A stretch of DNA of 28,568 nucleotides from IMG/VR virus record IMGVR_UViG_3300033075_001761; one strand, written 5' to 3'. Under the pieces are notes generated by a model. The model worked only from the letters and a program-made list of their open reading frames with translations. It ran no database searches and was not told where the DNA came from. Below, piece by piece: positions 3,376 to 23,192 of the stretch; position 1 is the stretch's first letter, and the number at the start of each line of letters is the position of its first letter. This DNA is from a virus. Its lineage: Duplodnaviria > Heunggongvirae > Uroviricota > Caudoviricetes. Made by a program: the position numbers and the translations under genes.

Positions 3376-5001
3376 GTGGAATACATGAGTTTTGCTTCAA
3401 ATTCTCTCAGATTGATCCGTTCGTTTTTTGACAAACAGAACAAATATAATGAGCCATACGATCCTTTTGAGACCAATAGGCTTTCAAATATGTACCAATG
3501 GGGAGTTGGGCCAGAAACTCATTCTTCTTTGAATGTTTGGAAAGATACACAGCTATCTCAAGATTTGCAGTCTAGATATGTAGATTACACAGAGATGCAA
3601 TATTACCCAGAAGTAGGAGCTGCGCTAGAGATTTTTTCTGATGAGGCAACAAGGATTGATACTTTAAAAAACAGATCGATTTGGGTAGAGAGCGAAAATG
3701 AGTCTTTGCAAGAAGCTTTGAACTACACAATGCACAATATCCTAAGGGTTGAGTCATCGATTTGGGACACTGTTTATACAGTATGCGCCATGGGCGATGC
3801 CTATCAAGAATTGATTGTAGAAGACAGAATAGGTGTTGTTAAGCTTATTGATCATCCGGCGCCTCTTGTTCGCGTAATGGCGTCCAGAGACGGCGTTGTT
3901 TATGGGTATCTAAGAGACGATACAATGGCATTTGACGGAATTTCTACAGAGTCTTTTTTGAAGAGGATGAATGGAGAATATACTGGACCAAATGATTCTT
4001 TAAAAACATTTGAGCCATGGGAAATTGCACATTTTAAGATTCAGACAGGAAATGTTGATCAGGTGTATGGGCGGTCAATTGTAGACCCAGCTAGATATGC
4101 TTGGAAGCGTCTTACAATGATTGAAGATGCTATGGTTTTGTTCAAGCTTACGCGGAGTCCACAAAGGTATGTTTTTTATGTAGACGTAGGGGATATCCCT
4201 CCAAACGAAGCTAGAGCGACTCTTGAAAAAGTTAAGCATGATTTTAAAAAACAAAAAGTGTTCGATAGTTCGGGCCAGCTTTCCAGCAAGGCAACGATCC
4301 TTTCTCAAACAGATGATTTCTTTATTGCCAAAAGAAAAGGAGAGAGAACAAGCGAAATTGATATTTTGGCAGGACTTGATGGCCAGTCCGTTGATGATGC
4401 CGAGTATTTCCGTAGTAAGCTTATTTCTGCTTTAAAGATTCCAAAAGCGTATCTTGGGTATGACGAAACTGTTTCCAGGAGCAACATCGGACAGCAAGAT
4501 ATCCGATTGGCAAAAACGGTTATGCGTATCCAACGGGTTATTAAAGAAGGATGGAGACATATCCTTCAAATCGATTTGGCAGCAAAAAACGTAGACCCTG
4601 ATAAAGTAAGTTTTGAAATTAAGATGGCAGTTCCGAGCGGAGCTCTTGAAATAGCCCAAATTGAAGTTGAGAAAGCCAAGGTCGATTTGGCAGCGCAGTA
4701 TCAATCGCAAAATTTTTCCGAGCATTTTATTTGGAGTAAGATCCTTGGCGTTTCTGACGAGGACATCCTTAAGATCAGAGGCCAAAGGGCTTTGGAGTCC
4801 GCTGGCGGAGATGCTACGCAACAACCTGAAGCCACTAGCCAACCCGTTGAGTCTAGAAGCCAGTCAAAAAAAGAACTCGAATTGCAGCAGCAAATTACGG
4901 AAAACATGGAAAAAGGGACCGACGAGTTGCATTCAAGACTTAGAGAACTTCGCGGATTAGTGAACGAAATGCGCCATGGACTTAGAAAAAAGTCTAAGTG
5001 A
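3376..5001 (+). CDS. gp20: Portal protein, T4 gp20-like
   Basis: YTEMQYYPEVGAALE and LTMIEDAMVLFKLTRSPQRYVFYVDVGDIP match gp20-family motifs (LEDA.VIYR..RAPERR.FY.DVG); FFIAKRKGE..SEIDILAG. Start may be ATG 3385. Confidence 0.92.
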   Translation: MEYMSFASNSLRLIRSFFDKQNKYNEPYDPFETNRLSNMYQWGVGPETHSSLNVWKDTQLSQDLQSRYVDYTEMQYYPEVGAALEIFSDEATRIDTLKNRSIWVESENESLQEALNYTMHNILRVESSIWDTVYTVCAMGDAYQELIVEDRIGVVKLIDHPAPLVRVMASRDGVVYGYLRDDTMAFDGISTESFLKRMNGEYTGPNDSLKTFEPWEIAHFKIQTGNVDQVYGRSIVDPARYAWKRLTMIEDAMVLFKLTRSPQRYVFYVDVGDIPPNEARATLEKVKHDFKKQKVFDSSGQLSSKATILSQTDDFFIAKRKGERTSEIDILAGLDGQSVDDAEYFRSKLISALKIPKAYLGYDETVSRSNIGQQDIRLAKTVMRIQRVIKEGWRHILQIDLAAKNVDPDKVSFEIKMAVPSGALEIAQIEVEKAKVDLAAQYQSQNFSEHFIWSKILGVSDEDILKIRGQRALESAGGDATQQPEATSQPVESRSQSKKELELQQQITENMEKGTDELHSRLRELRGLVNEMRHGLRKKSK

Positions 5002-5007
5002 TTAGAC
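4992..5007. repeat. Palindrome copy 1: GTCTAA-GTGA-TTAGAC
   Basis: Exact half-sites; spans the portal stop codon; centre reads TCAC on the minus strand. Confidence 0.85.
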
Positions 5008-5020
5008 AAAAGGAGAGATT

Positions 5021-5341
5021 ATGACTGTAGTTCGGAATCCAATGAATCCAAATTTTTTTGTAGAATCTAAAGAAGCCATCATTCCAATTGGTCCTTACGA
5101 GGTTCAATATGAGATTGACGGAAATAAAATTAAAGAAAAAGTTTTCGTGTTAGTCAAAAAGATACCAGACGCTCCTTCTGGAGAGCCGCCAGAGGATTCT
5201 CCTGTTGAAATCATAGAAATTCATGATTTCAACGGAAAAAGGCATGAACAAGAAGACGAAATTATTGGCGCTCTTTGGGAAGATCCTAAGTTCGGGCTGT
5301 TTGCTTTAGATGCTTTAGATAAAGATCTTGATGGGGTATGA
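5021..5341 (+). CDS. Hypothetical acidic protein (106 aa)
   Basis: AGGAG Shine-Dalgarno before ATG; co-oriented after portal. Confidence 0.75.
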   Translation: MTVVRNPMNPNFFVESKEAIIPIGPYEVQYEIDGNKIKEKVFVLVKKIPDAPSGEPPEDSPVEIIEIHDFNGKRHEQEDEIIGALWEDPKFGLFALDALDKDLDGV

Positions 5342-17691: not shown

Positions 17692-19119
17692 ATGAGCGAC
17701 AAAGTTGCAGGAAATGTGAAAGGTACTGTGCATGATGCATCGTACGCTGGAGCATTGGTTAGCAAGTGGGCAAATCTTTTGGAAGGGATTCAAAACCCCT
17801 ATGTTAAGAAATGCACTGCTGTTTTGATGGAAAACCAATCGAACTATCTTCGTTCGTTGGAAGAAGATACCCGTTCGACGAACGCAGGTTCTTATACCAA
17901 GTACATTTTCCCTCTTCTTCGCCGGGTTTTTCCTAACCTGATCGCACAAGAGATTGTTTCGGTTCAGCCCATGACCGCACCTGTTGGTGGCGTATTTTAT
18001 TATGAGCTGAAGTATGCAAATACTAAGGGCAAAGTAACTGCTGGCCAAAAGCTGGTAAAAGACTTTAACGCCTATTACTCCAGCCAAAAAGTTGACGAAG
18101 AAGTTGTTGGCGTTGGCGCTGGCACGTCTTTCTCTTCGACTTTGGATTACACTCCCGTGAAGAGCGCAACTGTTGTTGTTAGCGCAGGATCGGTTTCTGG
18201 TATTGACGATGGCTCTGGCGCAATCGTTGGAACTGGCGTGTCTGGTACGATTGACTACACAACGGGCTCTATCTCTCTTACCTTCGGTTCGAGCGTTGGC
18301 GCTGGCGTAAGCGTAGTTGCTGAGTATGAATACGACATGGAGTGCAACGACAACATTCCTGGCGTGAATATCGACATTGAGCTTCAAGAGATCAAAGCTA
18401 AGAGCCGTAAGCTCAAAGCTAACTGGTGCGCTGAAGCCGCTGACGACCTTAAGGCATTCCATGGTGTAGACGCTGATGCCGAATTGACAGCTTCTTTGGC
18501 TGCCGAAATTGCGTTGGAAATTGACCGTGAAATCATCGAAGAGCTTCGTAAGGCCGCTGCTTTGTCGAACAGCACTTCTGGTTATGACGTTACGACCATT
18601 CCTTCGGGCCGTACTGAGTTGGATGTTATCCGTGGCTTGATCACTCCTATGACCAAGGCTTCTAACCAAATCCATCAAAGCTCGCTTCGTGGGCCTGCTA
18701 ACTTCGGTGTAACCAGCTCGACTGTGATGAGCTACATTGAGCAGCTTGAAACACATGGCGACTTCCGTCCTTTGTTTGCCGCTCCTAATGCTGACCGTAA
18801 CGCTCCTGTGGAACAACCACACACGTTCGCCGTTCAGAAGATGGGAACCTTGGCTTCCAAATACATGATGTACAAAGACGTTTACTTTCCTGTCACCAAC
18901 GAAGGAACTGGAACTGGCTTTGGCGACATCTTGCTTGGATACAAAGGACCTTCGTACTTGGACGCTGGTGCTGTGTACGCTCCTTACATTCCTCTGCAAA
19001 TTTCGTCTACGTTTTATGACCCTGACACCGGGACCTTCAAAAAACTTGCTAGGACTCGATATTCTTTCCGCGTTCTGCGGTCGGATTTCTACCGTCGCGT
19101 GCGCGTTGGCGGACTGTAA
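17692..19119 (+). CDS. gp23: Major capsid protein, T4 gp23-like
   Basis: SKWANLLEG, AVLMENQ, LLRRVFPNLIAQEIVSVQPMTAPVGGVFY, KSRKLKANW..EAADDL...HG.DA, EIALEIDREII, YAPYIPL, RTRY; GGAGG SD before ATG 17692. Confidence 0.95.
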   Translation: MSDKVAGNVKGTVHDASYAGALVSKWANLLEGIQNPYVKKCTAVLMENQSNYLRSLEEDTRSTNAGSYTKYIFPLLRRVFPNLIAQEIVSVQPMTAPVGGVFYYELKYANTKGKVTAGQKLVKDFNAYYSSQKVDEEVVGVGAGTSFSSTLDYTPVKSATVVVSAGSVSGIDDGSGAIVGTGVSGTIDYTTGSISLTFGSSVGAGVSVVAEYEYDMECNDNIPGVNIDIELQEIKAKSRKLKANWCAEAADDLKAFHGVDADAELTASLAAEIALEIDREIIEELRKAAALSNSTSGYDVTTIPSGRTELDVIRGLITPMTKASNQIHQSSLRGPANFGVTSSTVMSYIEQLETHGDFRPLFAAPNADRNAPVEQPHTFAVQKMGTLASKYMMYKDVYFPVTNEGTGTGFGDILLGYKGPSYLDAGAVYAPYIPLQISSTFYDPDTGTFKKLARTRYSFRVLRSDFYRRVRVGGL

Positions 19120-19145: not shown

Positions 19146-19181
19146 AACCCGAGACTGGTATTCAGTCTCGGGTTTTTGTTT
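19146..19181 (+). terminator. Rho-independent terminator after capsid gene
   Basis: AACCCGAGACTG-GTATT-CAGTCTCGGGTT 12-bp stem followed by TTTGTTT. Confidence 0.9.
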
Positions 19182-19268
19182 GTACATAAATTATGCCAGA
19201 CAGTTGGCTGTTGTTGTTTTTTCTTGTGTTTTACCAATCAAAACTAGTATACATACAATGTTTTTTAT

Positions 19269-21470
19269 TTGTACATTGATTGTGCTAGACGATCAATGAT
19301 ACGGAAATCTCCTCGATTAAACCAGGAGTTTTCAGTGAGTTCGCAAGCGCAAACAAGGGCCGAGCAAATATGGGCATCAATCAATAAGTGTTCTGACGAT
19401 GAAAGGTGGTATTTTTTCGGATATTTTTTTGGGGATGGAAATGTATATTGGTTGTCTGAAAATTCCGCAAGGGTATCGTTTACAATAGAAGATTCTCTTC
19501 TTGATAGATGGATTGAAGCCTACGGACCATGGGGAGTTTCTCCCTATAAAGGAAAGAACTACAAACAGGTTTATGCGAACTGCCTGGATTTAGCTAAATT
19601 TATTTCTTCAGAATTTGGCATTACAGGACCGAAGTCAGACATAATTTTTGTACCAGAAGAGCTAAAGCTTATAGAAAGAAAAGATGATTTCTATTCCTTT
19701 GTTAGAGGCTTGTTTGATAGTGATGGATTTGTATCTGAATATACGTATAAGAAAAGCATTATTCCAAGCTATAGTTTTGGGATTTCATCAAATTCTCAAT
19801 TAATTATGGATGGACTCAAAGAGGTTTTTGAAAGAGATGGGATATCCTGCGTTGTAAAGGACTCTGAAAAATGCAAGGTTATTTATATTCGCTCAATATC
19901 TAGCCAAAAAATATTAATGGAGAACCTTTATAAAAAAGGCTCTATTTTCTTGTCAAGAAAACATGAAAAACTTTCAGAAGCCGCAGCAAAGTCTAATCGA
20001 GTAGACGAATTTTGTGTTGTTTGTAAAGATGAACCACGTAAGTTTGGTCTTCTTGGATATAAATGTTTTCATAAACAAAAAAGATCTTATTGTACCTGCG
20101 GTGATAGGTCCGTAGGAAATGGGTATTGTTCAATGATGACTTCGTATTTGAAGCGAAGCGAACTCTATAAGTTCGTTCCTTTAAGGATATCAGAAGTCCA
20201 GTTTTCTAATGAATTTGAAACAAGAGACCACAAGAGAATTGAAAAGGCTTTAAGACAGTATTGTTTGTCTTTTTATTCGGCAAAGCATGAAGGGTTTAAG
20301 TCTACGGCAGAGTGGTATAAAGAAGATGGCCTAGATGCTTGGACTGCGTACCAGCAGTCGAGAAGTAGTTTTGACGTAAAGCCAGCGTCTTGGTTTCCTA
20401 TTAAGTCAATGGATATTTTGTTGGAAATTTCAGAGCAAAGAGTTGGAAACGTTGGAACTGTATTCGACCCGTTTGTAGGATGGGGTACTAGGCTTTCATC
20501 TAGCATTTTGTCTGGTAAAAAATATAAAGGATGGGACTTAAATAGATTTCTTATGCACGAACTAATGGCGTTGTTTGGCTCTAAAGCAAGCATTGATGTG
20601 CTGGATTCGTTTGATATTTCTAATGATGTTCCAGAATCAGATTGTGTTATTACATGCCCTCCATACTGGGAAGCTGAAGATTATAATTACAAGCACAAAG
20701 AAGTTTCTTATACTCAATTTTTAACGCATTTATCGAACCTTGCTTTTCGGTGTATTAAAAAATCTAAAATAGTAATTTTTGCTATGGATGATTTTTATTA
20801 TTCAGGGTCAAAATATAGTTTTATTGATGATTTTTCTAAAGTATTAAATTTTGCAGGATTTAAATTTGAAGTTATTAAGTTTTCTACAACGAAGAGGTCT
20901 TATTCAGAAGACTTGGAAAATCATGCATTTATTATTGAAGCGTCAAAACAAGAAAATCCAAGAATAATATATAGAGCTGCAAATGCTTTAAATATAGGAT
21001 TACTAAAGGACTTAGCAAAATCGGCAAGAGATAAAAAGAAAATAATTCATGGTCAAAAGCCTGAAAAAAAATGTTCTGTTTGCGGTAGTTTTGAAAATTA
21101 TGCCGCAAAAGATCTGTGTTTTAATCATTACACAGAAAAAAAAAGAGAAGAAAAGTCTATAATGAATGGTGTTGTTTTAAAGAAAAGACAACAAAAAAAG
21201 AAAACAGAAGCGCCTATAGAAATGGTCTTAAACAGCAAGCCATTAGAGGTTGTATTTACGTCAAAGAATGATGGAGACGGTATTTATGTAAGGAAGAATA
21301 TTCCAAGGCCATTTTGTCCAATATGCTATATGGATGGAGAAAGAATTGTTTTAGGTTATTTTTCAACAAGAGAAGAAGCGTTAAATTTCAGAAAAAAATT
21401 TATTTCTAAAGTTCTAAAAAGATGGTCTGAAGTTTTGGAAAACGAAAGCTCTGGAGAAGGAGCGTTATGA
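19269..21470 (+). CDS. Fusion: two-motif LAGLIDADG endonuclease domain, Cys clusters, SAM-dependent amino-methyltransferase domain, AP2-like C-terminus
   Basis: FFGYFFGDG and FVRGLFDSDG; CVVC..C, CTCG..C; motif I FDPFVGWGTR and motif IV TCPPY; CSVCG..CFNH; GIY..GERIVLGYFSTREEA. Start may be ATG 19296. Confidence 0.8.
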   Translation: MYIDCARRSMIRKSPRLNQEFSVSSQAQTRAEQIWASINKCSDDERWYFFGYFFGDGNVYWLSENSARVSFTIEDSLLDRWIEAYGPWGVSPYKGKNYKQVYANCLDLAKFISSEFGITGPKSDIIFVPEELKLIERKDDFYSFVRGLFDSDGFVSEYTYKKSIIPSYSFGISSNSQLIMDGLKEVFERDGISCVVKDSEKCKVIYIRSISSQKILMENLYKKGSIFLSRKHEKLSEAAAKSNRVDEFCVVCKDEPRKFGLLGYKCFHKQKRSYCTCGDRSVGNGYCSMMTSYLKRSELYKFVPLRISEVQFSNEFETRDHKRIEKALRQYCLSFYSAKHEGFKSTAEWYKEDGLDAWTAYQQSRSSFDVKPASWFPIKSMDILLEISEQRVGNVGTVFDPFVGWGTRLSSSILSGKKYKGWDLNRFLMHELMALFGSKASIDVLDSFDISNDVPESDCVITCPPYWEAEDYNYKHKEVSYTQFLTHLSNLAFRCIKKSKIVIFAMDDFYYSGSKYSFIDDFSKVLNFAGFKFEVIKFSTTKRSYSEDLENHAFIIEASKQENPRIIYRAANALNIGLLKDLAKSARDKKKIIHGQKPEKKCSVCGSFENYAAKDLCFNHYTEKKREEKSIMNGVVLKKRQQKKKTEAPIEMVLNSKPLEVVFTSKNDGDGIYVRKNIPRPFCPICYMDGERIVLGYFSTREEALNFRKKFISKVLKRWSEVLENESSGEGAL
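19991..20006. repeat. Palindrome copy 5: GTCTAA-TCGA-GTAGAC
   Basis: One mismatch; at the end of the LAGLIDADG domain. 19988-20010 matches 28328-28350 at 21 of 23 bases. Confidence 0.75.
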
Positions 21471-21694
21471 AAGCTATTTTAGAGTTCAATCTAGATGATG
21501 TTGATGATCAGCATTCTCATAAGCAGTGCATAAAGGCCAAGGATATGGCTTTAGCTTTATCCGAAATCTCAGATAAATTCAGGGATATTAATAAGTATGG
21601 GTGTTGTTCTGATGGAACAAAGCAGTTTACTGCTGAAATATTTTATTCAATATTGAGTGAGCGCGGGATTTCTATAGACGATCTTGTTTATTGA
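21467..21694 (+). CDS. Small phage hypothetical protein (75 aa)
   Basis: ATGA overlap with upstream gene, AGGAG SD; MKAILEFNL start resembles small phage proteins I recall. Confidence 0.75.
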   Translation: MKAILEFNLDDVDDQHSHKQCIKAKDMALALSEISDKFRDINKYGCCSDGTKQFTAEIFYSILSERGISIDDLVY

Positions 21695-21719: not shown

Positions 21720-21793
21720 GGTTTCATAGTTCATTAGCAGAACACGGCACTGTCACTGCCGAGAGACGGGAGCGTTACCCGTTGGAACCGCCA
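21720..21793 (+). tRNA. tRNA-Asp(GTC), non-canonical D and T loops, CCA encoded
   Basis: Cloverleaf GGTTTCA/TGGAACC, GTTC/GAAC, CGGCA-CTGTCAC-TGCCG, ACGGG-AGCGTTA-CCCGT, G73, CCA. Confidence 0.88.
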
Positions 21794-21800
21794 AAGCTGA

Positions 21801-21884
21801 GGAAGGGTATGCAAGTAGCTAAAGCAGGCAGACTGTAAATCTGTTCCTTCGGGTTCGTGGGCGCAAATCCCACCCCTTCCTCCA
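21801..21884 (+). tRNA. tRNA-Tyr(GTA), non-canonical D and T loops, CCA encoded
   Basis: GGAAGGG/CCCTTCC, TGC/GCA D stem, GCAGA-CTGTAAA-TCTGT, long variable arm with TTCG loop, GTGGG-CGCAAAT-CCCAC, U73, CCA. Confidence 0.88.
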
Positions 21885-22016
21885 AAAGATAAAACACGAT
21901 GATTTCGTTAATAAAAATATATGGCTTTAAAAGCATCTCTGATAGCCTCTGATAAACTTTGTGTTGACTTCTTAAAAGATAACCGAATATGCATATTATT
22001 TATTTTGGGTTGTTCT

Positions 22017-23192
22017 ATGAATAGAGTTGTTACAAATGCACGCTATCCAATCAAGATTTGGGCATCAATTTTAGAAGAAGAGGCAGAAGAACAGATTAAA
22101 AAGACAGCGAGTATGCCATTTATCCATAGGCACGTTGCAGTAATGAGTGATGCACATGCTGGTAGAGGCTCTACAATTGGGACTGTTATAGCAACAAAAG
22201 GTGCAATAGTTCCTGCTGCGGTTGGCGTTGACATTGGATGTGGGATGATGGCTGTAAAGCTTCCGCTTAAGATTAACGATATAAAAAATTTAAATAATCT
22301 TAGGCATTCATGGGAGAGAACAGTACCCGTTGGAAGAAATGAAAACAGAGATGTTAAGGAAGATGCATCTGTTTTTTTAAATTCTATGGGAAAACCGAGT
22401 GGAGCTAGCGATAGGGTTTATAACAAATCTGCTCTTCAATTAGGAACTCTAGGTGGCGGGAATCATTTCATAGAGCTTTGTTATGATAGAGAAGGTGATG
22501 CTTGGATTATGTTGCATTCTGGATCTCGCAACATAGGGAAAGAATTGGCTGATGTTCATATTAACGGTGCGAAAGATTTAATGAAAAAATATTTCATCGA
22601 TCTTCCCGATCCAGATTTGTCGTATTTGGCAGAAGGGACTGATGAGTTTAATGCGTACATAGAAGACATGCATTGGGCTCAAAATTTTGCCATGGCAAAT
22701 AGAAACTTAATGATGGATAGGCTTTTGTATCAATTTGCTTATCATCAAAAAGGAAGTCCAGATGGATGGGAAGGGTACAAAACATTTTGTGTAAATTGTC
22801 ACCATAACTTTTGTCAAAAAGAAAACCATTTTGGAAGTAATGTTTGGGTCACAAGAAAAGGAGCTGTTTCTGCAAGAGAAAATCAATTTGGGATCATTCC
22901 AGGTAGCATGGGAGAAAGATCTTTTATTGTTAAAGGAAAGGGCAACGAAGATAGTTTTACTTCTTGTTCTCATGGTGCAGGAAGGATGATGAGTAGGACA
23001 AAAGCTAGATCTTTGTTTACAGTCGAAGATTTAGTTAAAGCTACAGAAGGCGTTGAATGCAGAAAAGATTCTGACGTGATCGACGAAATCCCTAATGCAT
23101 ATAAACCAATTGATGTTGTCATGAAAGATCAAGAAGATTTAGTTGAAATTGTTCACGAGTTAAAGCAAGTGCTTTGTATAAAGGGCGGCTAA
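22017..23192 (+). CDS. rtcB: RtcB RNA ligase
   Basis: VMSDAHAG, VGVDIGCGM, LGTLGGGNHF, LHSGSR, HHNF, IPGSMG, SHGAGR, DEIP.AYK: full RtcB active-site set. ATG 22017 preferred over 21921. Confidence 0.95.
   Translation: MNRVVTNARYPIKIWASILEEEAEEQIKKTASMPFIHRHVAVMSDAHAGRGSTIGTVIATKGAIVPAAVGVDIGCGMMAVKLPLKINDIKNLNNLRHSWERTVPVGRNENRDVKEDASVFLNSMGKPSGASDRVYNKSALQLGTLGGGNHFIELCYDREGDAWIMLHSGSRNIGKELADVHINGAKDLMKKYFIDLPDPDLSYLAEGTDEFNAYIEDMHWAQNFAMANRNLMMDRLLYQFAYHQKGSPDGWEGYKTFCVNCHHNFCQKENHFGSNVWVTRKGAVSARENQFGIIPGSMGERSFIVKGKGNEDSFTSCSHGAGRMMSRTKARSLFTVEDLVKATEGVECRKDSDVIDEIPNAYKPIDVVMKDQEDLVEIVHELKQVLCIKGG

Follow-up and report, generated by a model that had tools for sequence, protein, structure and literature searches.

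A LAGLIDADG endonuclease fused to a predicted DNA methyltransferase behind the major capsid gene of T4-like phages: a candidate homing cassette

The gene that follows the major capsid gene in a 28,568-nucleotide (nt) stretch of the IMG/VR virus record IMGVR_UViG_3300033075_001761 (hereafter the window, an excerpt of a 129-kb phage record whose T4-type head genes encode a portal, a prohead protease and a gp23-like capsid protein) raises the question of what an endonuclease and a methyltransferase are doing in a single polypeptide chain. A sequence-only reading of this gene had described one continuous frame of 733 amino acids (aa) and had offered two explanations, a self-protecting homing element or a methylase aimed by a borrowed recognition module. 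The open frame spans positions 19269..21470 (733 codons from a TTG, uninterrupted; this and all other features of the window described below, a palindrome apart, lie on the + strand), and its continuity was confirmed in an independent Logan assembly, L001, whose copy of the frame is 92% identical and has the same genes around it. The fusion recurs in independent assemblies, at 92% and at 25-36% identity, which rules out an assembly chimera as the origin of the frame. As argued below, we consider the gene to be, with a probability of about one half, a free-standing homing-endonuclease-type cassette located behind the major capsid gene whose product is one bifunctional protein.

Sequence and predicted fold both indicate that the N-terminal part of the protein is a complete LAGLIDADG nuclease of the single-chain type that retains the two metal-binding Asp residues. 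The single-chain, double-motif domain (aa 23-245; 19335..20003), which was delimited by Pfam, PHROG, a structural model and Foldseek, contains the motifs GYFFGDG (aa 51-57; 19419-19439) and GLFDSDG (aa 147-153; 19707-19727) as well as a conserved GPKS (19626-19637) that emerged from the alignment. The match to Pfam LAGLIDADG_3 (PF14528) had an E-value of 4e-7 and was above the curated cut-off. Residues D56, G57, D152 and G153 were invariant in six full-length relatives, and the Asp and Gly of the motifs, together with the Lys of GPKS, did not vary among 59 aligned sequences. For aa 20-300, the model built with AlphaFold from 59 sequences reached a predicted local distance difference test score (pLDDT) of 89, and DSSP assigned to it the succession alpha-beta-beta-alpha-beta-beta-alpha twice. 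The top Foldseek matches of this model were all LAGLIDADG enzymes, with values from 1e-9 to 1e-6 (I-Tsp061I, 2e-9; I-AniI, bI3 maturase, PI-PfuI, I-SceI and I-DmoI), and WhiA (3hyi) was also among its structural matches. The two LAGLIDADG helices with their acidic residues, already noticed in the sequence-only reading, are therefore borne out by Pfam, by the invariant D56 and D152 and by the model.

The selection acting on the different parts of the protein was analyzed by the ratio of nonsynonymous to synonymous substitution rates (dN/dS) between two independent assemblies, the window and L001. All parts are under purifying selection (dN/dS 0.06-0.22), and the LAGLIDADG part was the most constrained (0.063), followed by the zinc linker (0.071), the methylase part (0.089) and the C-terminal tail (0.22). 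Because the nuclease part is the most constrained one and can persist alone (see below), it is taken as active and as serving the element's own inheritance. The absence of flanking intein splice motifs, which had been stated before, was also corroborated, since no Hint or Intein_splicing domain was found in a Pfam scan of the protein and only about 20 residues lie ahead of the LAGLIDADG fold, which therefore leave no room for an N-extein or for splicing blocks. An intein was rejected on these grounds, the splicing blocks not being found and the N-extein being absent.

The central part of the protein is predicted, again by sequence and fold, to be a complete S-adenosylmethionine (SAM)-dependent DNA amino-methyltransferase placed between zinc-ribbon-like units that would bind DNA. 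This class I domain (aa ~300-575; 20166..20993), recognized by Pfam PF01555, a PDB profile, a model and a fold search, includes a motif X-like VKPASWF (20376-20396), a motif I FDPFVGWG (aa 399-406; 20463-20486) and a motif IV TCPPYW (aa 462-467; 20652-20669), and the 56 residues measured from motif I to TCPPYW agree with the distance of about 60 aa to CPPY given earlier. The match to N6_N4_Mtase (PF01555) had an E-value of 5e-9 and 36.9 bits versus a cut-off of 26.7, and the AlphaFold model of aa 295-600 (66 sequences; pLDDT 86; predicted template modelling score, 0.85) showed the elements of a seven-stranded sheet and was that of a class I methyltransferase. When the domain profile was compared with the PDB, the beta-class N4-cytosine/N6-adenine DNA methylases were the best matches by far (2zie, 115 bits; also 8s9n, DpnA, CcrM, M.PvuII and M.RsrI). 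The proposal of an amino-methyltransferase is thus upheld by PF01555, the PDB profile and the model, and by sequence the domain is closest to the beta-class DNA enzymes. The PF01555 and PDB profile matches were split in two pieces with swapped order, the X-I block first and the IV-VIII block second, so that X-I stands before IV and the linear order differs from that of the beta class (IV-VIII, target-recognition domain, X, I-III). Across about 100 relatives the first residue of motif IV was Cys in 63 and Ser in 36+4, and the [S/C]PPY motif leans, as judged from the sequence, towards N4-cytosine over N6-adenine. No THUMP domain was found in the Pfam scan of the protein.

An exhaustive HMMER search revealed full-length fusions at 25-36% identity (P0003-P0006), the level down to which the fusion is conserved. 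A second subtype has an extra N-terminal zinc ribbon and TSPPYW (P0015 and P0018), other fusions bear a helix-turn-helix (HTH; P0016 and P0022) or are based on LAGLIDADG_2 (P0059), and one form, P0020, shows the reverse order methylase-LAGLIDADG-zinc. Both domains occurred together in 13 of the 150 best cluster representatives and have diverged at similar rates (31% versus 38% mean identity), and in the methylase tree seven standalone methylases (~290 aa) were nested inside the fused clade. Among GenBank phages, a tblastn search with the whole protein gave nothing at 1e-5, with the methylase domain alone the matches were confined to standalone methylases that Twort-like staphylococcal phages encode in their replication module, and the P0016 query matched only LAGLIDADG parts; no cultured phage with the fusion was found in these searches, and no functional study of the fusion was found in the literature. 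In a sister methylase group, three proteins of 635-722 aa (P0023, P0057 and P0080) are fused to DUF7487 (PF24308) instead of LAGLIDADG, and DUF7487 could be another nuclease or a DNA reader.

The gene, or a split form of it, was located directly behind the major capsid gene in every relative with a readable flank, i.e. in the window, L002, L004, L005, the P0006 contigs, L013/L015, L093 and L094, and in L094 the fusion follows an unrelated HK97-type capsid gene. The phages with the pairing behind the capsid gene ranged in GC content from 36 to 60%. The same spot is occupied in another phage, whose capsid is sister to that of the window, by P0011, a LAGLIDADG-only protein that is 36% identical. 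Because the P0011 contig contains an intact LAGLIDADG and no methylase within 16.7 kb, the nuclease is tolerated alone. Standalone methylases of the same clade were also found behind gp23; in L095 an HNH endonuclease that carries the same zinc ribbons together with an AP2-like stretch comes after the methylase, in L012 a zinc-ribbon protein precedes it, and in another case it is preceded by an unknown 363-aa protein.

The presence of the gene was then compared with its absence in other relatives with 49-63% capsid identity, for which the IMG/VR capsid search needed an alignment query, a single-protein query having found nothing. Sister phages without the gene behind the capsid, whose existence the sequence-only reading had proposed to check, were indeed found (L101, L098/L099, L103, L104 and L105), and in the capsid tree L101, which lacks the gene, is sister to the fusion-bearing L005, so that occupancy is patchy. 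In T4 the GIY-YIG homing gene segD sits directly behind gene 23, and the locus is hence a known type of homing-gene niche. Taken together, the fixed place behind the capsid gene, the patchy presence in sister phages and the T4 segD case support the homing part of the first of the two earlier explanations.

Other genes also occupy this position. A phage whose capsid is 60% identical (L014) carries at 4966-5298 a Mom-family gene (PF25680, 1e-22) in place of the LAGLIDADG-methylase; Mom is responsible for adenine methylcarbamoylation in phage Mu. The locus downstream of gp23 thus seems to gather DNA-modification genes as well as homing genes, and in L107 a NUMOD3 protein is encoded behind the capsid gene. 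The head-gene modules of the P0006 contigs, L010, L093 and L094 are crowded with other mobile elements, namely inteins inserted in the portal gene or its neighbours, a LAGLIDADG_2 gene before gp23 and a LAGLIDADG_1 gene before the sheath gene.

According to the homing-cassette explanation, the gene would be expressed late, from transcripts that either run through the capsid terminator or begin at a weak promoter belonging to the gene itself. In a mixed infection, the nuclease would cut a long asymmetric site near the capsid gene of related phages free of the cassette, and recombinational repair would copy the cassette and its flanks into the cut phage, as is the case with the T4 Seg and Mob enzymes, whose cut is followed by recombinational repair that copies the gene and its flanks. 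The methyltransferase would modify N4-cytosine or N6-adenine in DNA, and its preferred role would be that of a useful cargo that guards the phage DNA against restriction, a benefit that would keep the selfish nuclease gene from decay. A possible alternative role of the methylase is that of a shield of the resident genome from its own nuclease.

Nevertheless, several observations weigh against this explanation. No near-identical pair of phages with and without the gene, which would mark the insertion boundaries and the target, was found. Because the identity of the gene between the window and L001 (92%) matches that of the neighbouring genes (83-96%), there is no sign of recent invasion, and a gene that has long been inherited vertically and is lost now and then would explain the data just as well. 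The placement among late genes could result from expression timing rather than from homing. As to the methylase, the enzymes with the same order of motifs that were retrieved by Foldseek, which aligns in sequence order, were all generic methylases or RNA methylases, 6zxw among them, and the literature yielded neither a paper on nor a characterized example of a CPPY methylase, the Cys replacing the Asp, Asn or Ser of characterized enzymes. Finally, we infer all three activities, i.e. nuclease, methylase and homing.

The gene was compared with several known systems. The T4-type free-standing homing genes (SegA-G and MobA-E) are similar in that an intergenic stand-alone nuclease gene lies beside the most conserved structural gene with a sporadic distribution, and SegD shares the very position, directly behind gene 23; they differ in being GIY-YIG or HNH enzymes with no methyltransferase, whereas here a LAGLIDADG is combined with a methylase and homing is a proposed activity. 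The single-chain LAGLIDADG enzymes I-Tsp061I, I-DmoI, I-AniI and I-SceI and the endonuclease domain of PI-PfuI have the same double fold with two helices and one acidic residue per motif, but they are intron- or intein-encoded, lack a methylase and are only 13-20% identical to the domain described here. The LAGLIDADG fold is also that of WhiA (3hyi), a DNA-binding regulator derived from it that has lost the catalytic acidic residues, which are in contrast invariant in the present family. The beta-class amino-methyltransferases of PF01555 (TTHA0409, 2zie; the N4-cytosine methyltransferase 8s9n; M.PvuII, M.RsrI and CcrM) share the DPFxGxG and TSPPYW-type motifs and the X-I block with the central domain. 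The halves of this domain nevertheless stand in the opposite order, with I-III ahead of IV-VIII, an arrangement also seen in gamma-class enzymes and Trm11, and its motif IV starts with a Cys.

Two further systems join both activities in one polypeptide. The Type IIC/IIG/IIB enzymes (MmeI, BcgI and Eco57I) consist of a PD-(D/E)XK nuclease and a gamma-class methylase with a shared target-recognition domain for short sites, and no LAGLIDADG member is known among them. They resemble the protein studied here in having a nuclease and a methyltransferase in one chain, but the LAGLIDADG nuclease fold differs from that of all known members (PMC9957025). A published precedent is that of the DNA methylases of cluster F actinophages (Taj gp79 and eight others), which contain a lone in-frame LAGLIDADG domain (Gosselin et al. 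2023, PMC9957025; Arsenault et al. 2025, PMC11855218); no intein or intron was detectable in them, the role of the LAGLIDADG was left open, and a single-chain restriction-modification function was judged unlikely (PMC9957025, PMC11855218). In both cases a single polypeptide unites a DNA methylase with a LAGLIDADG endonuclease domain. In the actinophages the domain is inserted within the methylase, the phages are temperate and a placement adjacent to the capsid gene was not reported (PMC9957025, PMC11855218), whereas here the LAGLIDADG is N-terminal, the phages are T4-like, the gene is always behind the capsid gene and the methylase is permuted. The LAGLIDADG-methylase fusion located behind the capsid gene is an uncharacterized family, while a lone LAGLIDADG in actinophage methylases had already been published.

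A dispersed palindrome with a 4-bp centre had been suggested as the target of the protein. The sequence GTCTAA-N4-TTAGAC occurs in 22 copies in the 129-kb record and in 7 in the window (at 4992, 9213, 11334, 15889, 19991, 23818 and 28331), with a spacing of about 4 kb. The copy reported at 19991 is real, with one mismatch, and falls (19991..20006; no strand) within the linker that joins the LAGLIDADG domain to the zinc cluster (aa 241-247); it fits the ~4-kb spacing of the array and is common to the 92% relative. No copy was found in about 95 kb from 8 other fusion-bearing phages. Large IMG/VR contigs with an exact copy had only 1-2 copies each and provided no test of an array without the fusion; among the contigs sampled, the array is therefore specific to this phage lineage. 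The in-gene copy is probably part of the genome-wide array and not a self-target. Single-chain LAGLIDADG enzymes normally read asymmetric sites, and an enzyme of this kind with unlike halves would therefore be a poor reader of a perfect palindrome. The absence of the palindrome from the other fusion-bearing phages and the fit of the in-gene copy to the array spacing thus leave its role as a target unsupported.

Could the two activities be directed to one and the same site? A single-chain homing restriction-modification system, in which the LAGLIDADG and the fused methylase act on the same long site by the capsid gene, so that the resident is marked and an unmethylated competitor or incoming DNA is cut and converted, would account for the nuclease-methylase pairing in both domain orders, for the two nuclease folds at the same locus (LAGLIDADG fused, HNH adjacent) and for the conservation of both catalytic centres. 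A free-standing homing gene of the Seg/Mob type leaves its own target intact and therefore needs some immunity, although no LAGLIDADG-based restriction-modification system is known to have been described. We consider this explanation possible yet unlikely, since P0011 keeps the nuclease at the locus without a methylase in 16.7 kb, standalone methylases of the same clade exist, and the authors of the actinophage study judged such a reading unlikely for their case (PMC9957025). It is more doubtful still that the protein is a DNA methyltransferase in which a catalytically idle, WhiA-like LAGLIDADG and the zinc ribbons serve as a pure sequence reader of rare long sites, possibly of the palindrome. 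The structural match to WhiA (3hyi), the palindrome copy within the gene and the 22 in the genome, and the abundance of accessory DNA-binding modules in the protein are consistent with this idea, but the catalytic Asp pair and the GPKS Lys are invariant across the 59 sequences, the dN/dS of the LAGLIDADG part is 0.063, the palindrome is missing from the other fusion-bearing phages, and a single chain with two unlike halves mismatches a perfect 16-bp palindrome. Moreover, because the methylase can stand alone, the LAGLIDADG is not an obligatory reader for it. Both the standalone methylases of the same clade that lack a LAGLIDADG and the strong constraint on the nuclease residues weaken, in general, the second option of the sequence-only reading, that of a methylase aimed by a borrowed recognition module.

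The gene might also be a decaying or domesticated remnant, i.e. an old homing gene captured in frame by a resident methylase gene and with a functionless nuclease. The window and L001 give no evidence of recent mobility and the published actinophage case appears to be vertically inherited, in agreement with this possibility; we nonetheless give it little credence, because the LAGLIDADG is the most constrained part (dN/dS 0.063), the catalytic residues are all kept over 25-36% identity and a LAGLIDADG-only form persists alone. As for an RNA substrate, which the sequence-only reading had left possible, the protein would be a Trm11-like N2-guanine or other RNA methylase guided by a maturase-like LAGLIDADG and acting on tRNA together with the nearby tRNA genes and RtcB. 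The motif order, I and then IV, is that of Trm11 and RsmD, the domain profile also aligned colinearly with Trm11 (5e71, 4.6e-11), the fold search gave a further colinear match (6zxw), bI3 maturase and I-AniI were among the top structural matches of the nuclease, and two tRNA genes and RtcB are just downstream. Nevertheless, the same profile scored 115 bits with DNA methylases against 46 with Trm11, and its match to the former takes in the X-I block that is characteristic of beta-class DNA enzymes. The setting with tRNA genes and RtcB is not kept in L004, L005, L013, L093 and L094. Moreover, an HTH, which is a DNA reader, is present in some family members, and one of the neighbouring proteins contains a stretch that resembles AP2. 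An RNA-directed function is on these data very improbable.

Selfish nuclease elements include both homing endonucleases and restriction-modification systems, and how the two are related in evolution has long been discussed. As a rule they are made of separate parts. In the family described here, a LAGLIDADG nuclease has stayed linked to a DNA methyltransferase for a long time, with the domains in either order, and methylases of the same clade are also found paired with an HNH nuclease. If the two activities were coupled, they would represent a new way in which homing elements become immune to themselves or "pay rent" to the phage that carries them, and a natural rare-cutting nuclease tethered to a methylase would be of interest for genome and epigenome engineering. 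Were both domains to act on the same site, the protein would be the first restriction-modification-like system based on a LAGLIDADG nuclease and a living link between both kinds of elements.

The Cys and Cys/His clusters described before were confirmed by the invariance of their residues among six full-length relatives. The first cluster (aa 249-287; 20013..20129) comprises two zinc-ribbon-like units with invariant C249, C252, C266, C275, C277 and C287, and the second one (aa 602-621; 21072..21131), also zinc-ribbon-like, has invariant C602, C605, C617, H620 and Y621. The CxxC...GxCxxH(Y) units of the first cluster are found again in relatives, and also in P0152 and P0153, two separate proteins encoded beside standalone methylases. 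Proteins adjoining standalone methylases of the same clade in L095 (2035-3024) and L012 (2-667) are made of CxxC...GxCxxH zinc-ribbon repeats, a module without a Pfam family, and the L095 protein has in addition an HNH_3 nuclease and an AP2-like stretch (PF00847 at 0.03). In contrast to the clusters, the AP2-like end proposed earlier was not confirmed. The C-terminal tail (21279..21401) shows a motif-level resemblance to AP2 (…RIVLGYFSTREEALNFRKKF), with its fold unconfirmed and weak leads only (a PHROG HNH-family match with an E-value of 0.011 and an Atlas lead of 0.87); Pfam AP2 (PF00847) gave no match even at E<=10 with the isolated tail (aa 672-725) or with longer pieces, and the searches of the tail against Pfam, PDB sequences, the Atlas and, by BLAST, the HNH-AP2-like neighbour protein gave nothing significant.

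Regarding the start of the gene, a Shine-Dalgarno AGGAG (19323-19327) precedes with a 7-nt spacing a likely GTG start at 19335 (the whole element, 19323..19337). This arrangement is kept in L001, and P0002, which is 92% identical, was called from the GTG position; judging by these signals, the GTG at 19335 is a likelier start than the TTG at 19269, and the probable coding sequence would then be 19335-21470 (~711 aa). The major capsid gene ends at 19119 and is followed, upstream of the cassette, by its intrinsic terminator (19146..19184; 13-bp stem and T run). No promoter is claimed, since in the promoter scan sigma-70-like sites were no commoner than the shuffled expectation. The GC content of the cassette gene, 0.34, was near that of RtcB and compares with 0.40-0.49 in the structural genes, an AT-richness that is too weak a sign of foreign origin. 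An open reading frame of 75 aa (21467..21694) overlaps the stop codon of the cassette through an ATGA; its L001 counterpart is 88% identical, it belongs to no known family, and NCBIfam had no family either for it or for the methylase domain. The downstream boundary of the cassette is formed by two tRNA genes (21720..21881), a tRNA-Asp (21720-21793, ARAGORN) and a second tRNA (21801-21881), both of which were found by Rfam RF00005 (48 and 47 bits) whereas ARAGORN called only one. As seen by eye, the variable arm of the second tRNA (+ strand) is long, its anticodon is GTA (Tyr-like) and its CCA end is encoded in the gene. The RtcB ligase gene (21921-23192) comes next after the two tRNA genes, and an RNA ligase is thus encoded near the 3' side of the capsid gene both here and in T4, where it is RnlB (108636-109640), in a similar place but from a different family.

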